This document shows, piece by piece, positions 24,319 through 36,911 of a stretch of 64,000 nt of DNA. This DNA comes from a virus (lineage: Duplodnaviria > Heunggongvirae > Uroviricota > Caudoviricetes), in the IMG/VR virus record IMGVR_UViG_2563366960_000002, one strand, 5' to 3'. The position numbers were made by a program, and so were the translations under genes. Within the stretch, counting starts at the first letter, position 1. Every line of letters starts with the position of its first letter. The notes under the pieces are model-generated. The model searched no databases and was not told the DNA's origin. It saw only the letters and a program-made list of their open reading frames with translations.

Positions 24319-25179
24319 ATGAATCAATCATTTATCTCCGATATTCTTTACGCAGACATTGAAAGTAAGGCAAAAGAACTAACAGTTAATTCAAACAACA
24401 CTGTGCAGCCTGTAGCGTTGATGCGCTTGGGGGTATTCGTGCCGAAGCCATCAAAGAGCAAAGGAGAAAGTAAAGAGATTGATGCCACCAAAGCGTTTTC
24501 CCAGCTGGAGATAGCTAAAGCCGAGGGTTACGATGATATTAAAATCACCGGTCCTCGACTCGATATGGATACTGATTTCAAAACGTGGATCGGTGTCATC
24601 TACGCGTTCAGCAAATACGGCTTGTCCTCAAACACCATCCAGTTATCGTTTCAGGAATTCGCTAAAGCCTGTGGTTTCCCCTCAAAACGTCTGGATGCGA
24701 AACTGCGTTTAACCATTCATGAATCACTTGGACGCTTGCGTAACAAGGGTATCGCTTTTAAGCGCGGAAAAGATGCTAAAGGCGGCTATCAGACTGGTCT
24801 GCTTAAGGTCGGGCGTTTTGATGCTGACCTTGATCTGATAGAGCTGGAGGCTGATTCGAAGCTGTGGGAGCTGTTCCAGCTTGATTATCGCGTTCTGTTG
24901 CAACACCACGCCTTGCGTGCCCTTCCGAAGAAAGAAGCTGCACAAGCCATTTACACTTTCATCGAAAGCCTTCCGCAGAATCCGTTGCCGCTATCTTTCG
25001 CCCGAATCCGTGAGCGCCTGGCTTTGCAGTCAGCTGTTGGCGAGCAAAACCGTATCATTAAGAAAGCGATAGAACAGCTTAAAACAATCGGCTATCTCGA
25101 CTGTTCAATTGAGAAGAAAGGCCGGGAAAGTTTTGTAATCGTCCATTCTCGCAATCCAAAGCTGAAACTCCCAGAATAA
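24319..25179 (+). CDS. repA: plasmid replication initiator RepA (P1 RepA-like)
   Basis: 286 aa, flanked by iteron arrays on both sides. Confidence 0.85.
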   Translation: MNQSFISDILYADIESKAKELTVNSNNTVQPVALMRLGVFVPKPSKSKGESKEIDATKAFSQLEIAKAEGYDDIKITGPRLDMDTDFKTWIGVIYAFSKYGLSSNTIQLSFQEFAKACGFPSKRLDAKLRLTIHESLGRLRNKGIAFKRGKDAKGGYQTGLLKVGRFDADLDLIELEADSKLWELFQLDYRVLLQHHALRALPKKEAAQAIYTFIESLPQNPLPLSFARIRERLALQSAVGEQNRIIKKAIEQLKTIGYLDCSIEKKGRESFVIVHSRNPKLKLPE

Positions 25180-25480
25180 GTGTGTGCTGGAGGGAAGCTG
25201 CATTAAAAAAATGTGTGCTGCCGGGAAGGCTTGTCCAATTTCCTGTTTTTGATGTGCGCTGGAGGGGGACGCCCCGCAGTTTGCCCAGACTTTCCCTCCA
25301 GCACACATCTGTCCATCCGTTTTTCCCTCCAGTGCACATGTAATTCTCTGCCTTTCCCTCCAGCACACATATTTGATACCAGCGCTCCCTCCACAGCACA
25401 TAATTCAATGCGACTTCCCTCTATCGCACATTCTGGTCCTGCATCATCCCTCCAGCACACATCTAATAGCCTCATCGCCA
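25180..25480. repeat. incA copy-control iteron array
   Basis: Nine copies of the TGTGCTGGAGGGAA-type iteron in both orientations downstream of repA. Confidence 0.8.
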
Positions 25481-25572
25481 TTTCTTTACGTGCAATAATT
25501 GACGCACGAATCAAAAAAAGTTGCACGTAGCAGAATCAAACGTACAATTCACTCATACGAAATGATAAGGAG

Positions 25573-26784
25573 ATGATGATGAAACGCGATTACGGCGGTG
25601 TCGGCACCATAGCTCTTCGTGCAAGCGCATTACTTAAGGCCATGAGTCAGGATATTGAAGATCAGCGCAAAGAGTTCAATCAGACCGAGTATTATCAGAC
25701 GTTCACTCGTAACGCTGTGGCAAAGTTGCCGAAGCTGAGCCGCCGCATTGTTGAGCAGGCCATCAAAGAGATGGAAGATGATGGGTACCAGTTCAACAAG
25801 AAACAGGTCGGTAACGTTGAACAGTACGCGCTGACCATCCAGAACGTCATTGATATCTATGCCCACCGTAAGATCCCCAAATATCGCGACATTCACAAAT
25901 CGCCTTACGTTATTTTTGTCGTAAACCTGAAGGGTGGCGTATCCAAAACGGTTTCCACAGTCACGTTGGCGCACGCTCTGCGTGTGCATCAGGATTTACT
26001 GCGTCACGATCTGCGCATTCTGGTAATTGACCTTGACCCTCAGGCATCCAGCACAATGTTCCTCGACCATACTCACAGTATTGGTTCCATCCTGGAAACC
26101 GCCGCGCAGGCGATGCTGAACGACCTGGACGCGGAGACGCTACGCAAAGAGGTGATTCGTCCGACCATCGTTCCTGGCGTAGACGTGATTCCAGCCTCTA
26201 TCGACGATGGCTTTGTTGCCAGCCAATGGAAAGAGCTGGTTGAAGAGCATCTTCCCGGACAAAATCAGTACGAAATCCTTCGACGCAATATCATTGATCG
26301 TGTTGCGGATGATTATGACTTTATCTTTATTGATACCGGTCCACACCTGGATCCGTTCCTGCTCAACGGTCTGGCGGCCAGCGATTTGCTGCTTACCCCT
26401 ACCCCACCAGCCCAGGTTGACTTCCACTCAACACTGAAATATCTCACCCGTCTGCCAGAAATGCTGGAGCAACTGGAGGAGGAAGGCGTAGAACCGCGTT
26501 TGAGCGCCAGCATTGGTTTTATGTCGAAGATGACCGGCAAGCGCGATCACGAGACATCACACAGCCTTGCGCGTGAGGTTTACGCCAGCAACATTCTGGA
26601 CTCTTCTCTGCCTCGTCTGGATGGCTTTGAGCGATGCGGCGAGTCTTTCGACACCGTAATCAGTGCCAACCCGCAATCGTATCCAGGCAGTGCAGAGGCG
26701 CTGAAGAAGGCACGAACCGAGGCCGAGCGTTTCACTAAGGCTGTGTTTGATCGAATTGAGTTTGTTAGGGGTGAGGCGGCATGA
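25573..26784 (+). CDS. parA: ParA partition ATPase
   Basis: 403 aa; deviant Walker A NLKGGVSKT; long N-terminal DNA-binding extension typical of type Ia ParA. Confidence 0.85.
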   Translation: MMMKRDYGGVGTIALRASALLKAMSQDIEDQRKEFNQTEYYQTFTRNAVAKLPKLSRRIVEQAIKEMEDDGYQFNKKQVGNVEQYALTIQNVIDIYAHRKIPKYRDIHKSPYVIFVVNLKGGVSKTVSTVTLAHALRVHQDLLRHDLRILVIDLDPQASSTMFLDHTHSIGSILETAAQAMLNDLDAETLRKEVIRPTIVPGVDVIPASIDDGFVASQWKELVEEHLPGQNQYEILRRNIIDRVADDYDFIFIDTGPHLDPFLLNGLAASDLLLTPTPPAQVDFHSTLKYLTRLPEMLEQLEEEGVEPRLSASIGFMSKMTGKRDHETSHSLAREVYASNILDSSLPRLDGFERCGESFDTVISANPQSYPGSAEALKKARTEAERFTKAVFDRIEFVRGEAA

Positions 26785-27746
26785 AAAAAATAGTTTCCCG
26801 TGGACGAGTGCTGGGCAAGAATAGCTCCGAGTTTGCTCGCATGCTTGAAGGCAGTGAAGGCACCAAAACCTTTACCCTAAAATCTGGCCGCCAGGCTAAA
26901 TTTTTGCTTACCGTTGTGCTGAGTGGTGAGATTGAGTCGCGCACGTTCGTTGACCCGGCAGTTAACGGCCGCGATCAGTCTCTGCTCACCCCTGAGTCGG
27001 TAAGCGATATTTCCCGCACCATTAAATTGCAACAGTTCTTCCCGGCTATCGGTCGTATGGTTGGGGAGCGCATTGAGGTATTGGACGGATCACGTCGCCG
27101 CGCTGCGTGTATCTTCAATGAAACGAAATTTGAGATTCTGGTGACGAAAGATGAGATCAGCCTGGCGGATGCACGCCAGCTGGCCATTGATATCCAGACA
27201 GCCCGCGAACACACCCTGCGCGAACTGGGTAAACGCTTCGAGGTTATGTATGGTAAGAGCATGACCAAAGAAGAGATCGCCCGCGCTGAGAACATTTCAA
27301 AGGCTAAAGTTACGCGCGCGTTCCAGGCGGCAGCGGTGCCGGATGAGATGATTGCTGTCTTCCCTGTTGCCAGCGATCTCGCCCTGCCAGATTACCAGTT
27401 ACTGCTCCAGATCTCCGAGGATGCCAACGCTAAAAGCGTGCCTATTGAAGAGCTGGTTGATACAGTGCGCGAACGAATTGCAGAGACTGAGGGCGCGAAA
27501 GAGGATAAAGCGAAGATACTGGCTATCTTCAAAGCGGAAAGCAAAAGCCTGAAGCCCGCGCCGGTTAAATCTGTGGTGGTTGAGAAGCTGCGAGACTTCT
27601 CTGACCGTCGCCAATATGCCCGAAAGAAGTCCGATCCGAAAAAACGGGTTGTCGCCTACGAGTTCTCCAGACTCCCGTCTGAAGTGCAAACTGAAATTGA
27701 CGAAGCAATAAAAAAAATCATTGGGAAAATGTCTGCTGGGGAATAA
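26781..27746 (+). CDS. parB: ParB centromere-binding protein
   Basis: 321 aa translationally coupled to parA; ParB-box-like ILDGSRRR. Confidence 0.75.
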   Translation: MKKIVSRGRVLGKNSSEFARMLEGSEGTKTFTLKSGRQAKFLLTVVLSGEIESRTFVDPAVNGRDQSLLTPESVSDISRTIKLQQFFPAIGRMVGERIEVLDGSRRRAACIFNETKFEILVTKDEISLADARQLAIDIQTAREHTLRELGKRFEVMYGKSMTKEEIARAENISKAKVTRAFQAAAVPDEMIAVFPVASDLALPDYQLLLQISEDANAKSVPIEELVDTVRERIAETEGAKEDKAKILAIFKAESKSLKPAPVKSVVVEKLRDFSDRRQYARKKSDPKKRVVAYEFSRLPSEVQTEIDEAIKKIIGKMSAGE

Positions 27747-32822: not shown

Positions 32823-33332
32823 ATGGGGCACAATAACACTAAGGGAAACCGTAAATTTATTAAGGGCCGCTATACTGCCAACGCGGCCAAAGGCGAACGA
32901 CTGGTATCTTCTGAATTCCAGCTCACTTTTGCAGGCCATGAAGATATCAGCGTACTGGTTCGCACGTCGCAAATCCCTGAAATGACCCGCGAGGATGTGG
33001 AGGACTATGGTCCGAATGGTGTGAAGTTCAACCAGCACGGTCCAATTCGAAACTCTGGGGAAATCCAGGTCCAGTGCGTGGAGACTATCGAAGGCGATAT
33101 TCTTCAGTTCATTAAAGATCGCATTGCGGCGAAGGACTATGTTGATATCACGATGGCTGCTACCCCTGAATCCAAATCTTCCGGGGTTAACGCTGTGACA
33201 AAAGCTGCTACAACAATTGAAATGTTGGACTGCAAAATCTACAGTGATGCAATCGACTTTAGTACCGAAGATGTGACTGCTGCTGTGCGTCCGTCACTTC
33301 GTATTGTCTACAACTGGATTGAGTGGGATTAA
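32823..33332 (+). CDS. virion structural protein
   Basis: 169-aa ORF, last gene before a strong terminator. Confidence 0.35.
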   Translation: MGHNNTKGNRKFIKGRYTANAAKGERLVSSEFQLTFAGHEDISVLVRTSQIPEMTREDVEDYGPNGVKFNQHGPIRNSGEIQVQCVETIEGDILQFIKDRIAAKDYVDITMAATPESKSSGVNAVTKAATTIEMLDCKIYSDAIDFSTEDVTAAVRPSLRIVYNWIEWD

Positions 33333-33360
33333 GAGTCATCACTTGTATTTTAAAGCTCCT

Positions 33361-33388
33361 ACGGGAGCTTTTTTTTATAACTATTTTA
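33361..33388 (+). terminator. rho-independent terminator
   Basis: AAAGCTCCTACGGGAGCTTT hairpin followed by an 8-T run. Confidence 0.65.
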
Positions 33389-33503
33389 TATAAAAATGCA
33401 TTGATAACATTGTCTGGAGTTTTATGTTAGATTATTAATGTTCTAATAAACTACAATTATTGAGGTAGAGGTTTGTGCCTGTCTGTTAAAGGGGGACTCT
33501 AAA

Positions 33504-34100
33504 ATGGCTGTGATTCCAATGTCGTACTCCCCGGGTACTGTCGCTCGTCGATTTTCGATCCTGGACGGAGTTACCATCCAGGGTGTGCTTTACCAGGTTA
33601 TATGGGATTCCAAAACCCCATTTGCAGCTGTAATAGAGGCTGCGCCTTCTGTTATCGATGGTGATATGCGGCATAAGGTTGTCGCTACTCTTGAACTTCA
33701 ACGTCGCCCGCAGCTTGAAGGTGTACTGGTAAGGAGGTTCTGGGAGGATAGTGATGTTGCCCAAATTGAAGGTATCGTGGTTGATGGAACCGTCCGTGAT
33801 GTCGGTTTAGCTACTTTTGTTTACGAAACCGTAGCCTCAAAAGCTGGTGTTGTTTTGCTTAGTGATAATGAGCAATACGAAGGTGGAAAAGCTCTTTGGC
33901 AACACATCGCCCGTCGCTCTTCCGAGCTAAAAGTGTTTATCCTCGACACCGATGCCGCTCAGTATTACCCGTTTGACGGCGAACGTGTTTGCTATGACGG
34001 GGTAAGTATTCCTGAATCTGAGATATGGAGTGAACACCCAGATCGAAGTAAGCATGGGGTTGTTCTTGTCGCTGAATCCATAACTGGAAAGGCGGCATAG
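33504..34100 (+). CDS. hypothetical protein (possible GNAT-like fold)
   Basis: 198-aa ORF with GGGGGA RBS downstream of an AT-rich promoter-like region. Confidence 0.35.
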   Translation: MAVIPMSYSPGTVARRFSILDGVTIQGVLYQVIWDSKTPFAAVIEAAPSVIDGDMRHKVVATLELQRRPQLEGVLVRRFWEDSDVAQIEGIVVDGTVRDVGLATFVYETVASKAGVVLLSDNEQYEGGKALWQHIARRSSELKVFILDTDAAQYYPFDGERVCYDGVSIPESEIWSEHPDRSKHGVVLVAESITGKAA

Positions 34101-34388
34101 CAGTAAAATTCCTTGCTCCTTAAAAGGGGAGAGGGTTAATCTAGATATGCTAAGCATGGATATGGCCTCAGATTAATGTTAAGCGTCTTGCAGGACGCGT
34201 AATGTTATCTGGGGCTTTCTTCTGTTATTTGTTTGAGTGCTAGGTAGCAAAGAGAGCTAGCATTCATCAGGCAAATCTATCAATAAATAGCGTTAGTTTT
34301 TGTTGTGTGTATGTTTCTTTATTGTTATTGTGTTGTTTGTTTTTTGGACAACGCAATTCCTATAATCTATAGAATAAAGGAAGTATAT

Positions 34389-34676
34389 ATGGCTGATGTA
34401 CGCATTACTTGCATTACCCTCTCCGGCTCGCAATCAATCCATGAGCATATTACTCATGTGGGAAGTCCTCAATTTAATACTAGCAATGGGAAATGGACTG
34501 TTGAGCAGGTAATTAATGCTATTGATAATAATCTCCATACATTCTATGTAACAGATAATGCAGGTAATCGTGTAGAAGTTGGGGTTGTTAATCCTGGTAA
34601 TGGTGGAAGGCAGTTTATTAGAACGTATGCAGACAATCGATGGAATAATAATTTACTATCGCTACCAGTCTGTTAA
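34389..34676 (+). CDS. DUF3892-like small protein
   Basis: ATG at 34389 with AAGGAAG RBS; HEHITHV and C-terminal NNLLSLPVC resemble DUF3892 as I recall it. Confidence 0.4.
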   Translation: MADVRITCITLSGSQSIHEHITHVGSPQFNTSNGKWTVEQVINAIDNNLHTFYVTDNAGNRVEVGVVNPGNGGRQFIRTYADNRWNNNLLSLPVC

Positions 34677-34687
34677 TGTAATTTTAT

Positions 34688-34722
34688 AAAAAAGGCTGCA
34701 ACCTCTGTTGCAGCCTTTTTTT
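34688..34722. terminator. bidirectional rho-independent terminator
   Basis: AAAAAGGCTGCAACCTCTGTTGCAGCCTTTTTTT between convergent genes. Confidence 0.65.
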
Positions 34723-34746
34723 AGCTATTATGACTGAGATAAGCCA

Positions 34747-35802
34747 CTATAAACTCTGAACAAGACGTTCGATTGCTGCACCATATCTTTCTAATGGTTC
34801 ATTATTGATTTGTGGCTCAGTGTCATGGATCTGATATCTGCCTGGTTTTATATCAAATAGAGGTCTTCCTAGATGGGAAGATACTATAGCTACGGAATGG
34901 TTATCTGGCACAGTAAACGTTTTTAAATTTCCGCCTTGGAACGCTGTTGGTTTATTCGTCCGCAGATTTTCAGCTCTATCCCTGATTTCGTCGAACATTG
35001 CCGAAAACGCTTTACTTGCTCGTTTGTCATACTCTGTCGAACGATTAAAAACTAGAGAATGAATGACAGGAACCGCTAGACCAAACTGTTGACACCGATC
35101 GTAAAAGTTAACAGAACGATAATCGTTTTGTACTCCAACGCCATAAACCAACTGGCTTAGGTTATCCACTGCTCGAGCCGAAGAACCATCACTTGAGCAA
35201 GGTATTATAATTGCATTTGCTGCTATCAGTGATAGTTCGGTATAGGCAGAGAAACTGGGGTTGCAATCAATAAAGCAAATGGTTTCTTCGATACCTTGTT
35301 GTTGTGCACATGCAACAAGCAAATCTCGTAGCCACAGGTGGATGCTTTTCCATGAGTCAACTGGTAAGTTTACGCTGCTTAACTGATTGATTACTTGCGC
35401 CTGAACTTCCAGGCTTGGGTCGCCTGCAATCAAAAATACATTGTCAGGGACATGCCCGTTAATTTCAGAGACATGAATTAAGAAACTTGTTTCTGAACCG
35501 GTAAGCATGTGGGGGCTGCGAGTTCTTCTGTCAAAGTACCCACCGACAGTTTTTCGTTGTTGAATTAAGCTCGCGAGGTTAGCAGCACCAGTACCGTTAC
35601 CACCGAGCAATATTTCAGATAAGTTAGCCTGCGGACACATATCTGCAAAAATAATACGCTTTTCTGGATTTTGCCTTGCGTATTCACAGGCCATAGCGAA
35701 AGATAAGTAGGTCTTTCCTACGCCACCTTTATTATTCCAAATAGCATACGATTTCATGGTATCCCCGGCGTTATCTGCTGTTTGTGTGCCAGCATAAGTC
35801 AT
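34747..35802 (-). CDS. orphan ParA/MinD-family ATPase with about 100-aa C-terminal extension
   Basis: Deviant Walker A NNKGGVGKT; probable start at MKSYAIW (GGGGA RBS); no adjacent ParB; downstream of repL. Confidence 0.55.
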   Translation of the reverse strand: MTYAGTQTADNAGDTMKSYAIWNNKGGVGKTYLSFAMACEYARQNPEKRIIFADMCPQANLSEILLGGNGTGAANLASLIQQRKTVGGYFDRRTRSPHMLTGSETSFLIHVSEINGHVPDNVFLIAGDPSLEVQAQVINQLSSVNLPVDSWKSIHLWLRDLLVACAQQQGIEETICFIDCNPSFSAYTELSLIAANAIIIPCSSDGSSARAVDNLSQLVYGVGVQNDYRSVNFYDRCQQFGLAVPVIHSLVFNRSTEYDKRASKAFSAMFDEIRDRAENLRTNKPTAFQGGNLKTFTVPDNHSVAIVSSHLGRPLFDIKPGRYQIHDTEPQINNEPLERYGAAIERLVQSL

Positions 35803-36049
35803 TATGCATCTCCATTACTATCCATGAATTGAGTCAAAAAATATGTAAAAGTAGCAATGTATCACTCTTTTACTCATTATAAACGTTACAAGTTGTGATG
35901 GTTAGCTGTGTTTTTATCAGTACAAGTTTTGATCTGGCTTTGGGTTTTTATATATGGATATGTCTCAAAGATGCCCTGCAAAAGCGATCGCTAACTGTAA
36001 AAAATCAGATTGCATCTCCGACCTCAAACTGAAAACGCCAGGTGACTCC

Positions 36050-36062
36050 AGATTAGAGCAAT
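36050..36062 (-). promoter_or_regulatory. C1-operator-like element (conserved ATTGCTCTAAT core only)
   Basis: Reverse complement ATTGCTCTAATCT at the repL stop, upstream of the ParA-like gene. Confidence 0.3.
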
Positions 36063-36065
36063 CTA

Positions 36066-36911
36066 TCACCCTCTGAATCCTGCCGGTATACCCCATTGTT
36101 CGTTATCTTTATTTTTGGCTAAAACCGCATTAAGAGCTTTGTTTACCGTCATGCAATGCGGCAGATTATCGAAGTTTGATATCCCGCAAATATCAGGAGA
36201 ACGCTTGTTCTTCAGGTAAGCATATTTCCGCGCTGCCGCCTCTACTTTCTGCTTGAACTCATGTTTTTGAGCGCGTTTTTTGGATAACCGCAGATTGTCA
36301 GCCTTTGCTTTTGCCTCAGCGATCCATGAAGTCAATTTTTTGAGTCTGGTCGTTCCGGCACCGCCGGAAACTGATCTTTTTGTTTTTTTAACTTGTGACT
36401 TCTTATTCTTTATTGCCACGTCATCCTGACAGGGGGAGGGGGTATCATTTTGACATGGGGGTGTGGATAAAAAATCAAATAAAGCCAATGTATTAGCGAG
36501 AACAGCTTTAACCTTGGTTGCGGCTGAAGAGATCTTTAATTTGCTTTCAATCAGCGCGTTTTTAGCGTGTTGTGCGAAGGCCAAAAAGGATGGTGTAAAC
36601 CGGTACAGGTTAGCGCGGCGTTCACGGTGATCGCCGATAACAATCTCTACAGACAGGATTCCTTTGTTTACAGCTTCACGGAATGCACGAACGACGGTTG
36701 ATTGACTATAACCAGTTTCTGCCGCGATCAGGCGGTGAGGCTTGTGAATGAAGTATTCACTGGTTGTTGCCGCGAGATTTGCACATTGCGACAGGATATG
36801 CCCGGCGCTACGGGATAGACCGGAGTGTGTTACAAAGCAGGCCAATTCATAGCCAGAAAAAGTAAAATCGCTCATCGTTATACAGCTCAGGAAAGTGACT
36901 TTAGCCAGCAT
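36066..36911 (-). CDS. repL: lytic replication initiator (P1 RepL-like)
   Basis: 281 aa; position downstream of kilA under an Op53-like operator; size matches P1 RepL. Confidence 0.75.
   Translation of the reverse strand: MLAKVTFLSCITMSDFTFSGYELACFVTHSGLSRSAGHILSQCANLAATTSEYFIHKPHRLIAAETGYSQSTVVRAFREAVNKGILSVEIVIGDHRERRANLYRFTPSFLAFAQHAKNALIESKLKISSAATKVKAVLANTLALFDFLSTPPCQNDTPSPCQDDVAIKNKKSQVKKTKRSVSGGAGTTRLKKLTSWIAEAKAKADNLRLSKKRAQKHEFKQKVEAAARKYAYLKNKRSPDICGISNFDNLPHCMTVNKALNAVLAKNKDNEQWGIPAGFRG

Follow-up and report, generated by a model that had tools for sequence, protein, structure and literature searches.

Between the last virion gene, bplB, and the lytic replication gene repL, the 64,000-nt window analyzed here, which is from a P1-like (IncY) phage-plasmid, carries a mosaic accessory-gene ("moron") island at a swap site of P1-like phage-plasmids. 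The island fills the bplB-repL interval from 33.4 to 35.8 kb and is made up of a 198-aa protein with a PmgF-like N-terminus (ORF198), a hok/sok scar, a 95-aa DUF3892 protein, a bidirectional terminator, and a 351-aa ParA/Soj-fold ATPase. Most of our attention goes to the ATPase. Taking island and ATPase together, we tentatively prefer to see the latter as a mobile single-gene module, of a clade named here DxCPQ for its switch I motif, that has a protective role in lysogenic conversion and is not a partition motor. For the ATPase itself, a prophage-expressed protective factor is more likely than a plasmid-partition protein, and we hold with moderate to low confidence that it is a lysogeny-expressed exclusion or defense ATPase working independently of a partner.

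The boundaries of the island are drawn by backbone genes. On the left is bplB (32823..33332, plus strand), recognized by megablast to P1 bplB and from the P1 annotation, and followed by an intrinsic terminator on the plus strand at 33352..33379 (hairpin 33352-33371 and T-run). With an 8-bp GC-rich stem, a T8 run, a folding energy of -14.6 kcal/mol, and z of -6.06, it bears out the view of an earlier, sequence-only reading of this DNA that a strong terminator closes the virion operon. On the right is repL (36066..36911, minus strand), encoding a lytic replication initiator 97% identical to P1 RepL. The same reading had called the block AT-rich, and the GC fraction is indeed 0.36-0.44 over 34.0-36.2 kb, down from about 0.50 among the virion genes; the low GC of the 33.4-35.8 kb block points to a foreign origin. 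In the literature the interval is listed as a hot spot of variation, region of difference RD-3 (PMC6906374). P1 has pmgF and rlfB-rlfA there, P1 MH422554 has mokW/hok, and RCS47 has ORF198 and a transposase, so that the interval is documented as an exchange site at which ParA-like cargo is found alongside addiction loci and transposases.

Compared with the pmgF-rlfB-rlfA segment of P1, the island shares the chromosomal slot, the flanking genes, the C1 operator Orlf/Op55, a left gene that is PmgF-like at its N-terminus, and a convergent right gene directed away from repL. It differs in that ORF198 has twice the length of PmgF, that the cargo is a DUF3892 gene, a ParA-like gene, and a hok scar, and that homologs of RlfA (DUF3800) and RlfB are absent from the window by tblastn at E up to 1e-3. 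Had the proteins been nearly identical to P1 backbone proteins of established role, this would have spoken against the sequence-only reading; the comparison gave no such case. An Rfam scan of the block gave sub-threshold matches only (terminators and the sok scar). The parts would have been gained separately: a PmgF-like 198-aa allele, the hok/sok scar, the DUF3892 gene, and the ParA-like ATPase gene.

The 2 rightward genes are as the sequence-only reading described them, each with its own ribosome binding site of Shine-Dalgarno type, with ORF198 at 33504..34100 and the stand-alone DUF3892 gene at 34389..34676, both on the plus strand. The assignment of the 95-aa protein to DUF3892 stands as well: it has both the HEHITHV and NNLLSLP motifs and matches Pfam PF13031 over profile positions 1-71 of 71 with E = 1.7e-15 and 57.7 bits versus a cut-off of 22.3; it also falls in phrog_8224 (E = 1e-37). 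In the phage collection searched, tblastn gave no match for it, and its homologs elsewhere are lone cargo genes or lie upstream of an FRG-domain gene. Between the convergent DUF3892 and ATPase genes, and common to both, is the bidirectional intrinsic terminator that had been proposed (34688..34722, both strands), a perfect 9-bp stem between A6 and T7 with z of -5.3 on the plus strand and -6.1 on the minus strand.

ORF198, the DUF3892 gene, and the ATPase gene are not one unit, because ORF198 is found in about 680 plasmids and the DUF3892-ATPase pair in 42, and because no DUF3892 gene is found beside 80 other loci of the ATPase family. It might be supposed that the DUF3892 protein and the ATPase make a 2-gene sensor-effector system, the former sensing nucleic acid or the ribosome, a role already suggested for this domain. 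The genes do adjoin, they always co-occur in the 42 plasmids that carry them, and a prediction of Burroughs and Aravind, as cited in 2 preprints (bioRxiv 10.1101/2022.04.27.489752 and 10.1101/2025.01.14.632903), places isolated DUF3892 domains in conflict systems. The window's protein resembles those in being a full-length PF13031 domain borne, like its homologs, on a mobile element, and is unlike them in having no CapH/CapP regulators, Min-Wnt fusion, or FRG partner. However, the segment is 98.6-99.7% identical across the 42 plasmids, so the co-occurrence reflects descent; the genes face each other across a terminator; the prophage homologs of the ATPase also have no DUF3892 gene nearby; and the DUF3892 homologs have other partners or none. 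We regard a joint system as highly improbable and treat the 2 genes as independent cargo.

The ATPase gene is at 34747..35802 on the minus strand and encodes 351 aa, or 336 aa if translation begins at the second ATG at 35757, which is possibly the true start, as the family core begins there and residues 1-13 are modeled with pLDDT below 50. The sequence-only reading was right to see a convergent ParA/MinD-type ATPase: the protein has the deviant Walker A motif NNKGGVGKT with its signature lysine (in the alignment K25 and K30 are the counterparts of K11 and K16 in Soj), it matches AAA_31/CbiA, and in 3 dimensions it has the ParA/Soj fold, placing it in the ParA/MinD (deviant Walker A, SIMIBI) superfamily. 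The same reading gave it a C-terminal extension of roughly 100 aa, but the ParA fold extends over the entire protein, and so there is no separate domain. The best structural matches are 8RAY, McdA, ParA2, and pNOB8 ParA, which are relatives of the DNA-binding class. An identity as MinD was considered and rejected, as the C-terminus belongs to the globular fold (helix 334-350, pLDDT about 90) that does not align with the MinD tail, and neither minC nor minE is nearby. In the P1 record, ppfA is given not as ParA-like but as a gene of "possible periplasmic function".

What sets the clade apart is in switch I. Residues K25 (signature Lys), K30 (Walker A), D54, D179 (Walker B), and an Arg equivalent to Soj R189 are kept, but switch I reads D54-M-C56-P-Q, with C56 aligned to the water-activating Asp (D40) of Soj/MinD. 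The protein thus departs from the catalytic-Asp pattern DxD(P/I)(Q/G). The change is a property of the family, with Cys at this position in 119 of 120 close homologs and in 81 of the 85 representatives of 50% clusters whose motif is readable. Asp is present in the nearest solved relative, 3PG5, according to the tool alignment. That entry is DIP2308 of Corynebacterium diphtheriae, uncharacterized, and by sequence it ranks first among solved structures (E = 1.8e-8); at 361 aa it is also a long ParA-like protein, but it keeps the catalytic Asp (VDCDPQ) and is only about 20% identical to the window's ATPase. Against Soj and other type Ib ParA proteins and McdA (8RAY, 6NOO/6NOP, 2BEK), the ATPase differs in the Cys for Soj D40, in about 85 inserted residues, in having no partner gene (ParB or McdB) or centromere, and in being a mobile single-gene unit.

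Structural biologists use an Asp-to-Ala change at this switch I position to trap ATP dimers. The same Asp is mutated, by their PDB titles, in structures of McdA (D38A) and HpSoj (D41A). The retained residues would suffice for ATP binding, for a nucleotide-sandwich dimer, and for DNA binding, and we infer that the natural Cys could slow hydrolysis in a similar way, so that the protein would act as an ATP-dependent dimer on DNA with no activator of the ParB or MinE type. Alternatively, the Cys might bring other chemistry or redox control instead of slow hydrolysis. Four Cys residues of the protein are invariant.

To see what company this ATPase keeps, we turn to its homologs. The family has roughly 4,500 homolog loci. 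The clade is strongly conserved, with identities of 55-70% between members from different bacterial phyla and from some archaea, and is always a stand-alone gene without ParB. No neighbor is conserved in 76 loci, small genes included, and clustering all ORFs of 80 genome loci, with Pfam and PADLOC run on the immediate neighbors, gave no partner. The neighbors in those 80 loci are transposases, scattered restriction-modification (R-M) genes, and MADS-like or housekeeping genes, the commonest being IS1595 or IS1 transposases. A homolog is carried as passenger gene by an IS1595 unit (2,272 bp, inverted repeats of 23 bp) that is found in 3 copies; another is the lone cargo in an ICE of E. coli LF82; in 4 loci a homolog adjoins type I and type III R-M genes; and others are at chromosomal single-gene insertion sites. 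About 8% of immediate neighbors match a defense model and many loci lie between housekeeping genes, and hence guilt by association for defense is weak. PADLOC-DB 2.0 HMMs, the catalog check that had been proposed, match none of the island's 3 proteins at E up to 0.1, and the literature on ParA-like defense or exclusion genes turned up no characterized member of the family. Apparent domain fusions in longer members were rejected: in 5 close members they are upstream ORF artifacts, and 10 distant representatives have no extra Pfam domain.

Homologs also occur in lambdoid prophages. One lies directly 3' of the repressor gene, with both genes on one strand, in each of 4 cases: a Serratia prophage (85% identity), phi297 (70%), where a parA without parB was remarked on (PMC3564109), Klebsiella phage ST11-VIM1phi8.2 (35%), and a metagenomic prophage, L104 (71%). 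In 2 of these 4 no terminator-like site was found before the gene, and a strong terminator comes after it; in the Klebsiella phage, a terminator-like hairpin lies between cI and the homolog. Because the lambdoid homologs follow cI on the same strand, 2 of them with no terminator-like site found in between, expression in the lysogen, and not in lytic growth, is what the comparison points to. In the window, a perfect TATAAT hexamer (35876..35881, minus strand), read from the sequence, stands 74 nt before the first ATG as a candidate promoter of the gene's own, with a weak -35; a consensus scan missed it, and it is weak evidence. Upstream are 2 imperfect direct repeats of about 31 bp, 34 bp apart (35887..35951, both strands), which are possibly regulatory and possibly due to chance; they are not conserved upstream of the homologs and therefore cannot be called an operator.

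The rival readings have to be weighed against this background, beginning with partition. A second maintenance or positioning ATPase, giving backup or specialized partition by way of the nucleoid and a host or element adaptor, would suit the ParA/Soj fold and its DNA-binding-class structural relatives, the conserved equivalent of Soj R189, and the annotation of PHROG 164 as "ParA-like partition protein". Yet the ATPase gene is flanked by the terminator and DUF3892 gene on one side and the repL stop on the other, with no parB or adaptor in its operon. The sequence-only reading had doubted a partition role and noted the missing ParB, and this holds up: no ParB-like gene adjoins, the protein has no N-terminal HTH, and there is no tandem centromere-like array near it, the two-copy 31-bp repeat being the one repeat there. 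Against NCBIfam NF041546 ParA_partition it scores 39.8 bits versus a cut-off of 180, matching with its N-terminal 45 or so residues only. The plasmid already encodes ParA (25588-26772) and ParB (26850-27728); of the complete parAB-parS module that had been claimed, parA and parB are present, but P1 parS was not found by blastn-short. A lost catalytic Asp is also hard to reconcile with the ATP-hydrolysis cycle of gradient-based positioning. Since the closest relatives sit in integrated prophages, the interior of an ICE, IS elements, and chromosomal single-gene insertions, a plasmid-partition protein is very unlikely, and the variant of a second positioning ATPase is in our estimate quite improbable.

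The position of the gene might suggest another role, that of a functional replacement for rlfA/rlfB: C1 (Op53/Op55) would control its transcription along with that of kilA-repL, and the ATPase would organize or position lytic replication or packaging. The ATPase gene does share the position and orientation of rlfA/rlfB downstream of repL and Orlf, with no convincing terminator between repL and the gene. The C1 operator itself (36046..36062, minus strand) is the homolog of P1 Orlf/Op55, which P1 annotation puts 3 nt from repL. Its core, ATTGCTCTAAT at 36052-36062 on the minus strand, is one of 7 exact cores in the window versus 0.04 expected by chance; the sequence-only reading had seen it correctly but had it overlapping the repL stop, whereas it lies 3 nt after that stop (36066-36068). 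This operator is backbone and not cargo, its core being invariant in 4 P1-like genomes, and about 245 bp separate it from the downstream ATPase gene, which has a candidate -10 of its own. The ATPase has no sequence relationship to RlfA or RlfB, and because the interval carries unrelated cargo (a hok locus, a transposase) in other P1-like genomes, position does not imply a replication role. The lambdoid homologs, moreover, are on the cI side of the immunity region, outside the replication operon, and others are in IS elements and chromosomal single-gene sites. With its gene downstream of repL and a C1 operator, the ATPase may be expressed in the lytic phase, but the proposed co-expression with lytic replication is not supported, and we think the replacement role unlikely. 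Also of low probability is an anti-defense or host-manipulation factor in the service of the mobile element, for instance one that protects the element's DNA against nucleases or SMC/Wadjet-type systems of the host, or one that acts on DnaA or on cell division in the manner of Soj, MinD, and MipZ. Regulation of host machines by ParA-family proteins is established for Soj-DnaA, MinD-MinC, and MipZ-FtsZ, and carriage by every class of mobile element would fit such a role; spread over bacteria and archaea speaks against a lineage-specific host target, and genes located in the cI operon are typically of advantage to the lysogen.

For the protective role that we prefer, the nearest analogies are the immunity-region morons lambda rexAB and Gifsy-1 STM14_3218-3220, which resemble the close ATPase homologs in lying immediately 3' of the repressor gene on the same strand. 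STM14_3218 of Gifsy-1 is an orphan parA-like gene beside the repressor, and mitomycin C does not induce it. On induction, this gene and 2 neighbors are needed for the RtcR-activating signal, thought to be a cleaved tRNA, and it dampens phage production, lowering yield 2- to 4-fold (PMC9879122). The likeness is in orphan status and position; the Gifsy-1 protein is shorter at 279 aa and acts with 2 extra genes. Lambda RexA and RexB have no sequence relationship to the ATPase, and the window's ATPase gene is not adjacent to c1. As a mechanism, the ATPase would be transcribed in the prophage or plasmid state, with a promoter of its own in the window and as a gene following cI in the lambdoid prophages, and would provide lysogenic conversion, most probably superinfection exclusion or defense against incoming phages and mobile DNA. 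A bolder and more doubtful generalization is that the DxCPQ ATPases make up a new and widespread family, bacterial and archaeal, in which one gene provides immunity or superinfection exclusion. In this view a partition-type ATPase has lost its catalytic Asp and its partner, an ATP-locked DNA-binding dimer blocks incoming phage or plasmid DNA, and the family has been spread by prophages (with the gene behind cI), phage-plasmids, ICEs, and IS1595 transposons.

The accepted picture of ParA/MinD ATPases is that of 2-component positioning machines, in which the ATPase is joined by an activator that triggers hydrolysis. A large, strongly conserved mobile single-gene clade with neither an activator gene nor the catalytic Asp would be a different use of the ParA fold. 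If it is lysogen-protective, the ATPase is one more candidate for the list of prophage-encoded defenses, very compact and easy to test, and it would account for the lone "parA" genes commonly put aside as remnants of plasmids.

At the left end of the island, ORF198 combines a PmgF-like N-terminal domain with a conserved C-terminal domain of about 130 aa. Similarity to the 98-aa PmgF of P1 is confined to residues 3-66 (45% identity over 64 aa, E = 2e-12), and the C-terminal domain is unrelated to PmgF. The protein belongs to phrog_7522 (E = 3.6e-139), and its roughly 680 plasmids are PLSDB entries, to which are added phages RCS47 and SJ46. Its Pfam match to GNAT is sub-threshold. A Foldseek search of the PDB with the AF2 model (pLDDT 74) gave nothing significant, and because its GNAT-like matches are no better than E = 0.15 (TM about 0.35-0.4), the model leaves an acetyltransferase-like C-terminal domain as a weak suggestion. 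One source labels a relative that is 87% identical as an N-acetyltransferase.

Immediately downstream, at about 34110..34225 on the minus strand, is the hok/sok-type scar, a feature missing from the description in the sequence-only reading. It keeps a hokW/mokW-like 5' leader, from which the mok/hok reading frames are deleted; no Hok-like ORF was found at the scar, and the Rfam sok match there is 24 bits versus a gathering score of 59. The scar is 87-95% identical to the region beside or under annotated mok/hok genes in P1 variants and lambdoid phages. In P1 MH422554, mokW is intact at the same site, and the alignment with that genome has the mok/hok ORF part deleted from the window.

The window is a P1-like phage-plasmid. 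The block at 33.4-35.8 kb fills the interval between bplB and repL, with 22 (sheath), 21, pmgG, and bplB before it on the plus strand and repL, kilA, and ant after it on the minus strand. RepL is 97% and RepA 100% identical to the P1 proteins, and on entering the block the GC content falls from about 0.50 to 0.36-0.44. About 40 PLSDB plasmids from E. coli, E. fergusonii, E. albertii, and Salmonella match the entire block (33300-35900) at 98-99% identity, and the single one inspected in detail types as IncY; its genes are annotated on the plasmids as hypothetical, DUF3892 domain-containing protein, and ParA family protein. By database comparison, the entire block is absent from every deposited phage genome, and the match of RCS47, SJ46, and vB_EcoM-673R5 is limited to its first 0.9 kb. 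The bplB-repL region has been described as one of five variation hot spots in P1-like plasmids (Venturini et al., PMC6906374). Dozens of database records already contain the locus, and the variable site is published, so the block per se is ordinary.

The occupants of the interval are pmgF and then convergent rlfB-rlfA in P1, a mokW/hok locus alone in P1 MH422554, the 198-aa gene with a transposase (annotated orfB) in RCS47, and in the window the 198-aa gene, a hok scar, a DUF3892 gene, and the ParA-like ATPase gene. The backbone junction is nested: sequence shared with the window starts at about 35975 for MH422554, at about 36030 for RCS47, and only at the operator for P1. Near-identity to the P1 genes that follow repL, a possibility raised in the sequence-only reading, is not what we find, there being no homologue of RlfA or RlfB within the window. 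We conclude with high confidence that the block was acquired horizontally, as cargo at a known swap site, and that its genes are mutually independent.

Both rightward genes described from the sequence, ORF198 (33504-34100) of 198 aa and the DUF3892 gene (34389-34676) of 95 aa, have Shine-Dalgarno (SD) sequences, and the motifs quoted for the smaller protein are present. ORF198 residues 3-66 align to P1 PmgF with 45% identity (E = 2e-12). The remaining 130 or so residues are conserved across enterobacterial homologues and score over threshold to no Pfam family (GNAT reaches 14 of the 20.7 bits required); structural matches of the AF2 model (pLDDT 74) are GNAT-like and non-significant, and an 87%-identical relative carries the label N-acetyltransferase in one data source. 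ORF198 is found on about 680 plasmids and the rarer DUF3892/ATPase cargo on 42; the gene behaves like an alternative pmgF-slot allele, not like part of that cargo. Beyond it is a scar of a hokW/mokW-type toxin-antitoxin locus (34110-34225, minus strand), of which 34130-34223 aligns at 87-95% identity with sequence that, in lambdoid phages and P1 variants, lies beside or under the mok/hok genes where these are annotated. Alignment to P1 MH422554, which has an intact mokW/hok copy at the same site, places the mRNA leader as retained and the toxin reading frames as deleted; no Hok-like ORF is left in the scar, which reaches 24 of the 59 bits required by the Rfam sok model. The scar is a relic of a previous occupant of the site.

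The terminator proposed to close the virion operon after bplB is a hairpin followed by T8 at 33352-33379, and the bidirectional one between the convergent genes is a perfect hairpin at 34688-34722; compared with shuffled sequence, both are much more stable folds (z of -5.3 to -6.1). The C1-operator-like core ATTGCTCTAAT has 7 copies in the window versus 0.04 expected. The copy at 36052-36062 had been thought to overlap the repL stop; it is there, but abuts it, 3 nt beyond. That copy is the counterpart of P1 Orlf, an annotated operator formerly called Op55. Since P1 carries the annotation, the 3-nt spacing from the repL stop is shared, and the core is identical throughout four P1-like sequences, Orlf/Op55 belongs to the backbone. 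The putative C1 site spans 36046-36062 on the minus strand and reads ATTGCTCTAATCTGGAG; in the distal half the window differs from P1 (ATTGCTCTAATTATAAC) and agrees with RCS47 and P1 MH422554. As for the complete parAB-parS module that had been claimed, parA and parB are at 25588-27728, their products sharing 58% and 43% identity with those of P1, and P1 parS was not recovered in the window. At 24319-27728, the P1-identical RepA adjoins a diverged ParA and ParB, and the partition module has been exchanged relative to P1.

The ATPase (351 aa, 34747-35802, minus strand) is convergent with the DUF3892 gene and has the Walker A sequence NNKGGVGKT, both as first read. The C-terminal extension of roughly 100 aa attributed to it is not borne out. 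Pfam and NCBIfam models cover only the first 60-90 or so residues, which accounts for the apparent extension, and the AF2 model (20 homologues; pLDDT 86.6, pTM 0.87) is one ParA/Soj domain over the whole length. In alignments with Soj and MinD, K25 is the signature Lys, K30 the Walker A Lys, and D179 the Walker B Asp, D54 and R254 correspond to Soj D38 and R189, and C56 occupies the position of Soj/MinD D40. The tool alignment to 3PG5 has the same Cys-for-Asp change, DMCPQ opposite DCDPQ. Cys is found at this position in 119 of 120 close homologues and in 81 of the 85 representatives with a readable motif drawn from a word-index-free HMM search, the other four having Ser (2) or Asp (2). Loss of this Asp in Soj D40A and MinD D40A keeps ATP binding and dimerization and blocks hydrolysis, and the same Asp is mutated in the PDB entries for McdA D38A and HpSoj D41A. 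By analogy, the natural Cys may act on hydrolysis as loss of the Asp does. Two candidate start codons, 35802 and 35757, each have an SD-like sequence; the conserved family core starts at the second, 35757 (MKSYAIWNNKGG), and disorder is predicted for the first 13 residues. Upstream of the gene, 2 imperfect direct repeats of about 31 bp, 34 bp apart (35887-35951), show no conservation upstream of the homologues.

With an E-value limit of 1e-5, the protein search returned 4,521 clusters. The best 120 have 55-90% identity, and their sources include Proteobacteria, Desulfovibrio, Acidobacteriota, Planctomycetota, Chloroflexota, Cyanobacteria, and Patescibacteria; a genome scan added the archaea Hodarchaeota, Methanoperedenaceae, and Micrarchaeota. 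High conservation with such patchy spread indicates that the gene has often moved horizontally. When all ORFs within 6 kb were clustered for 80 loci, no recurrent partner gene family emerged. Transposases are the commonest neighbors, of the IS1595 family at ten loci (cluster 1; Pfam confirms seven among the immediate neighbors scanned) and of IS1 type at seven (cluster 2; Pfam confirms four). Others include housekeeping genes, R-M genes of types I and III, MADS-like genes, a caspase, and a SocA antitoxin. In Bdellovibrionales and Spirochaetia MAGs (L036, L031, L065, L066), the gene adjoins type I HsdR or sits next to type III mod/res genes or between them. The Vicinamibacterales MAG OZ250139.1 has 3 identical 2,272-bp IS1595-family units (L075, L076, and L077, 5883-8154) with 23-bp terminal inverted repeats, containing an ATPase-family gene, the transposase, and nothing else; the ATPase frame looks split in these copies, by frameshift or assembly error. 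A 40%-identical member on the E. coli LF82 chromosome (L092, 8097-9158) is a lone opposite-strand insert among ICE T4SS genes. This ICE also encodes an anti-phage dCTP deaminase.

The closest relatives directly follow a phage repressor gene and lie on its strand, as in a Serratia prophage (85% identity), metagenomic prophage L104 (71%), and Pseudomonas phage phi297 (70%), and so does the more distant homologue of Klebsiella phage ST11-VIM1phi8.2 (35%). This is the classical position for accessory genes expressed in the lysogen, such as lambda rexAB. In the Serratia prophage and phi297, no terminator-like site was found between cI and the ATPase homologue and there are strong terminators downstream of it; in the Klebsiella phage, a terminator-like hairpin separates the two. 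That phi297 has parA without parB was remarked by Krylov et al. (PMC3564109), who speculated on unstable lysogeny. A stand-alone, highly mobile clade of ParA-fold ATPases with Cys at the catalytic Asp, recurrent behind prophage repressors, is not described in the literature searched.

We conclude with high confidence that the ATPase is not a partition protein of the plasmid, as had been proposed. The absence of an activator gene fits the absence of the catalytic Asp, because a non-cycling protein needs no ParB/MinE-type partner. Tentatively, and at somewhat less than an even chance, we read it as an exclusion or defense factor, which would be expressed in the prophage state, would bind DNA as an ATP-dependent dimer that hydrolyzes slowly without a partner, and would serve the lysogen or the element. 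Counting against this are zero PADLOC matches, the modest association with known defense genes, the housekeeping genes that flank many insertion sites, and the location of the window gene downstream of repL and a C1 operator. That location would be shared by a factor with a role linked to replication, which we think unlikely, the closest relatives being found behind repressors. A second positioning system, for which the ParA/Soj fold is there and a partner family is not, is more doubtful still. A functional pair with the DUF3892 gene, its convergent neighbor here, is very improbable, as no DUF3892 gene is near the ATPase family in any of the 80 other loci or in the prophage loci, so we take the two as unlinked.

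An anti-defense or host-manipulation factor is an unlikely reading too. A precedent for an orphan ParA at a repressor comes from Salmonella Gifsy-1 (strain 14028s), where such a ParA-like gene adjoins the repressor gfoR and 2 hypothetical genes, is not induced by mitomycin C, is needed on prophage induction for the signal, thought to be cleaved tRNA, that activates RtcR and turns on the RNA-repair operon, and reduces phage titers 2-4 fold (PMC9879122). The Gifsy-1 protein has 279 aa.

The 95-aa DUF3892 protein is a complete PF13031 domain, and its homologues of 55-73% identity are stand-alone proteins of about 95 aa in Enterobacterales and beyond. In the literature, the domain is predicted to function in conflict systems, where it might sense nucleic acids or ribosomes; no experimental work on it was found in the literature searched. 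On E. coli contigs L095-L098 (about 6001-6288), a 73%-identical gene stands alone on the opposite strand within a prophage- or satellite-like region, with a truncated lambda-type capsid E gene and then tail genes to one side and, to the other, a satellite-like block of D5 primase, SSB, a second capsid E, head-decoration protein, and AlpA, perhaps a capsid-forming satellite that has inserted into a prophage. In an island on Salmonella contigs L099-L101 (6001-7357), a homologue and the FRG-domain gene directly behind it share a strand; a 1,020-aa DEAD/ResIII helicase and TrbL are nearby, and the pair is possibly a two-gene conflict module.
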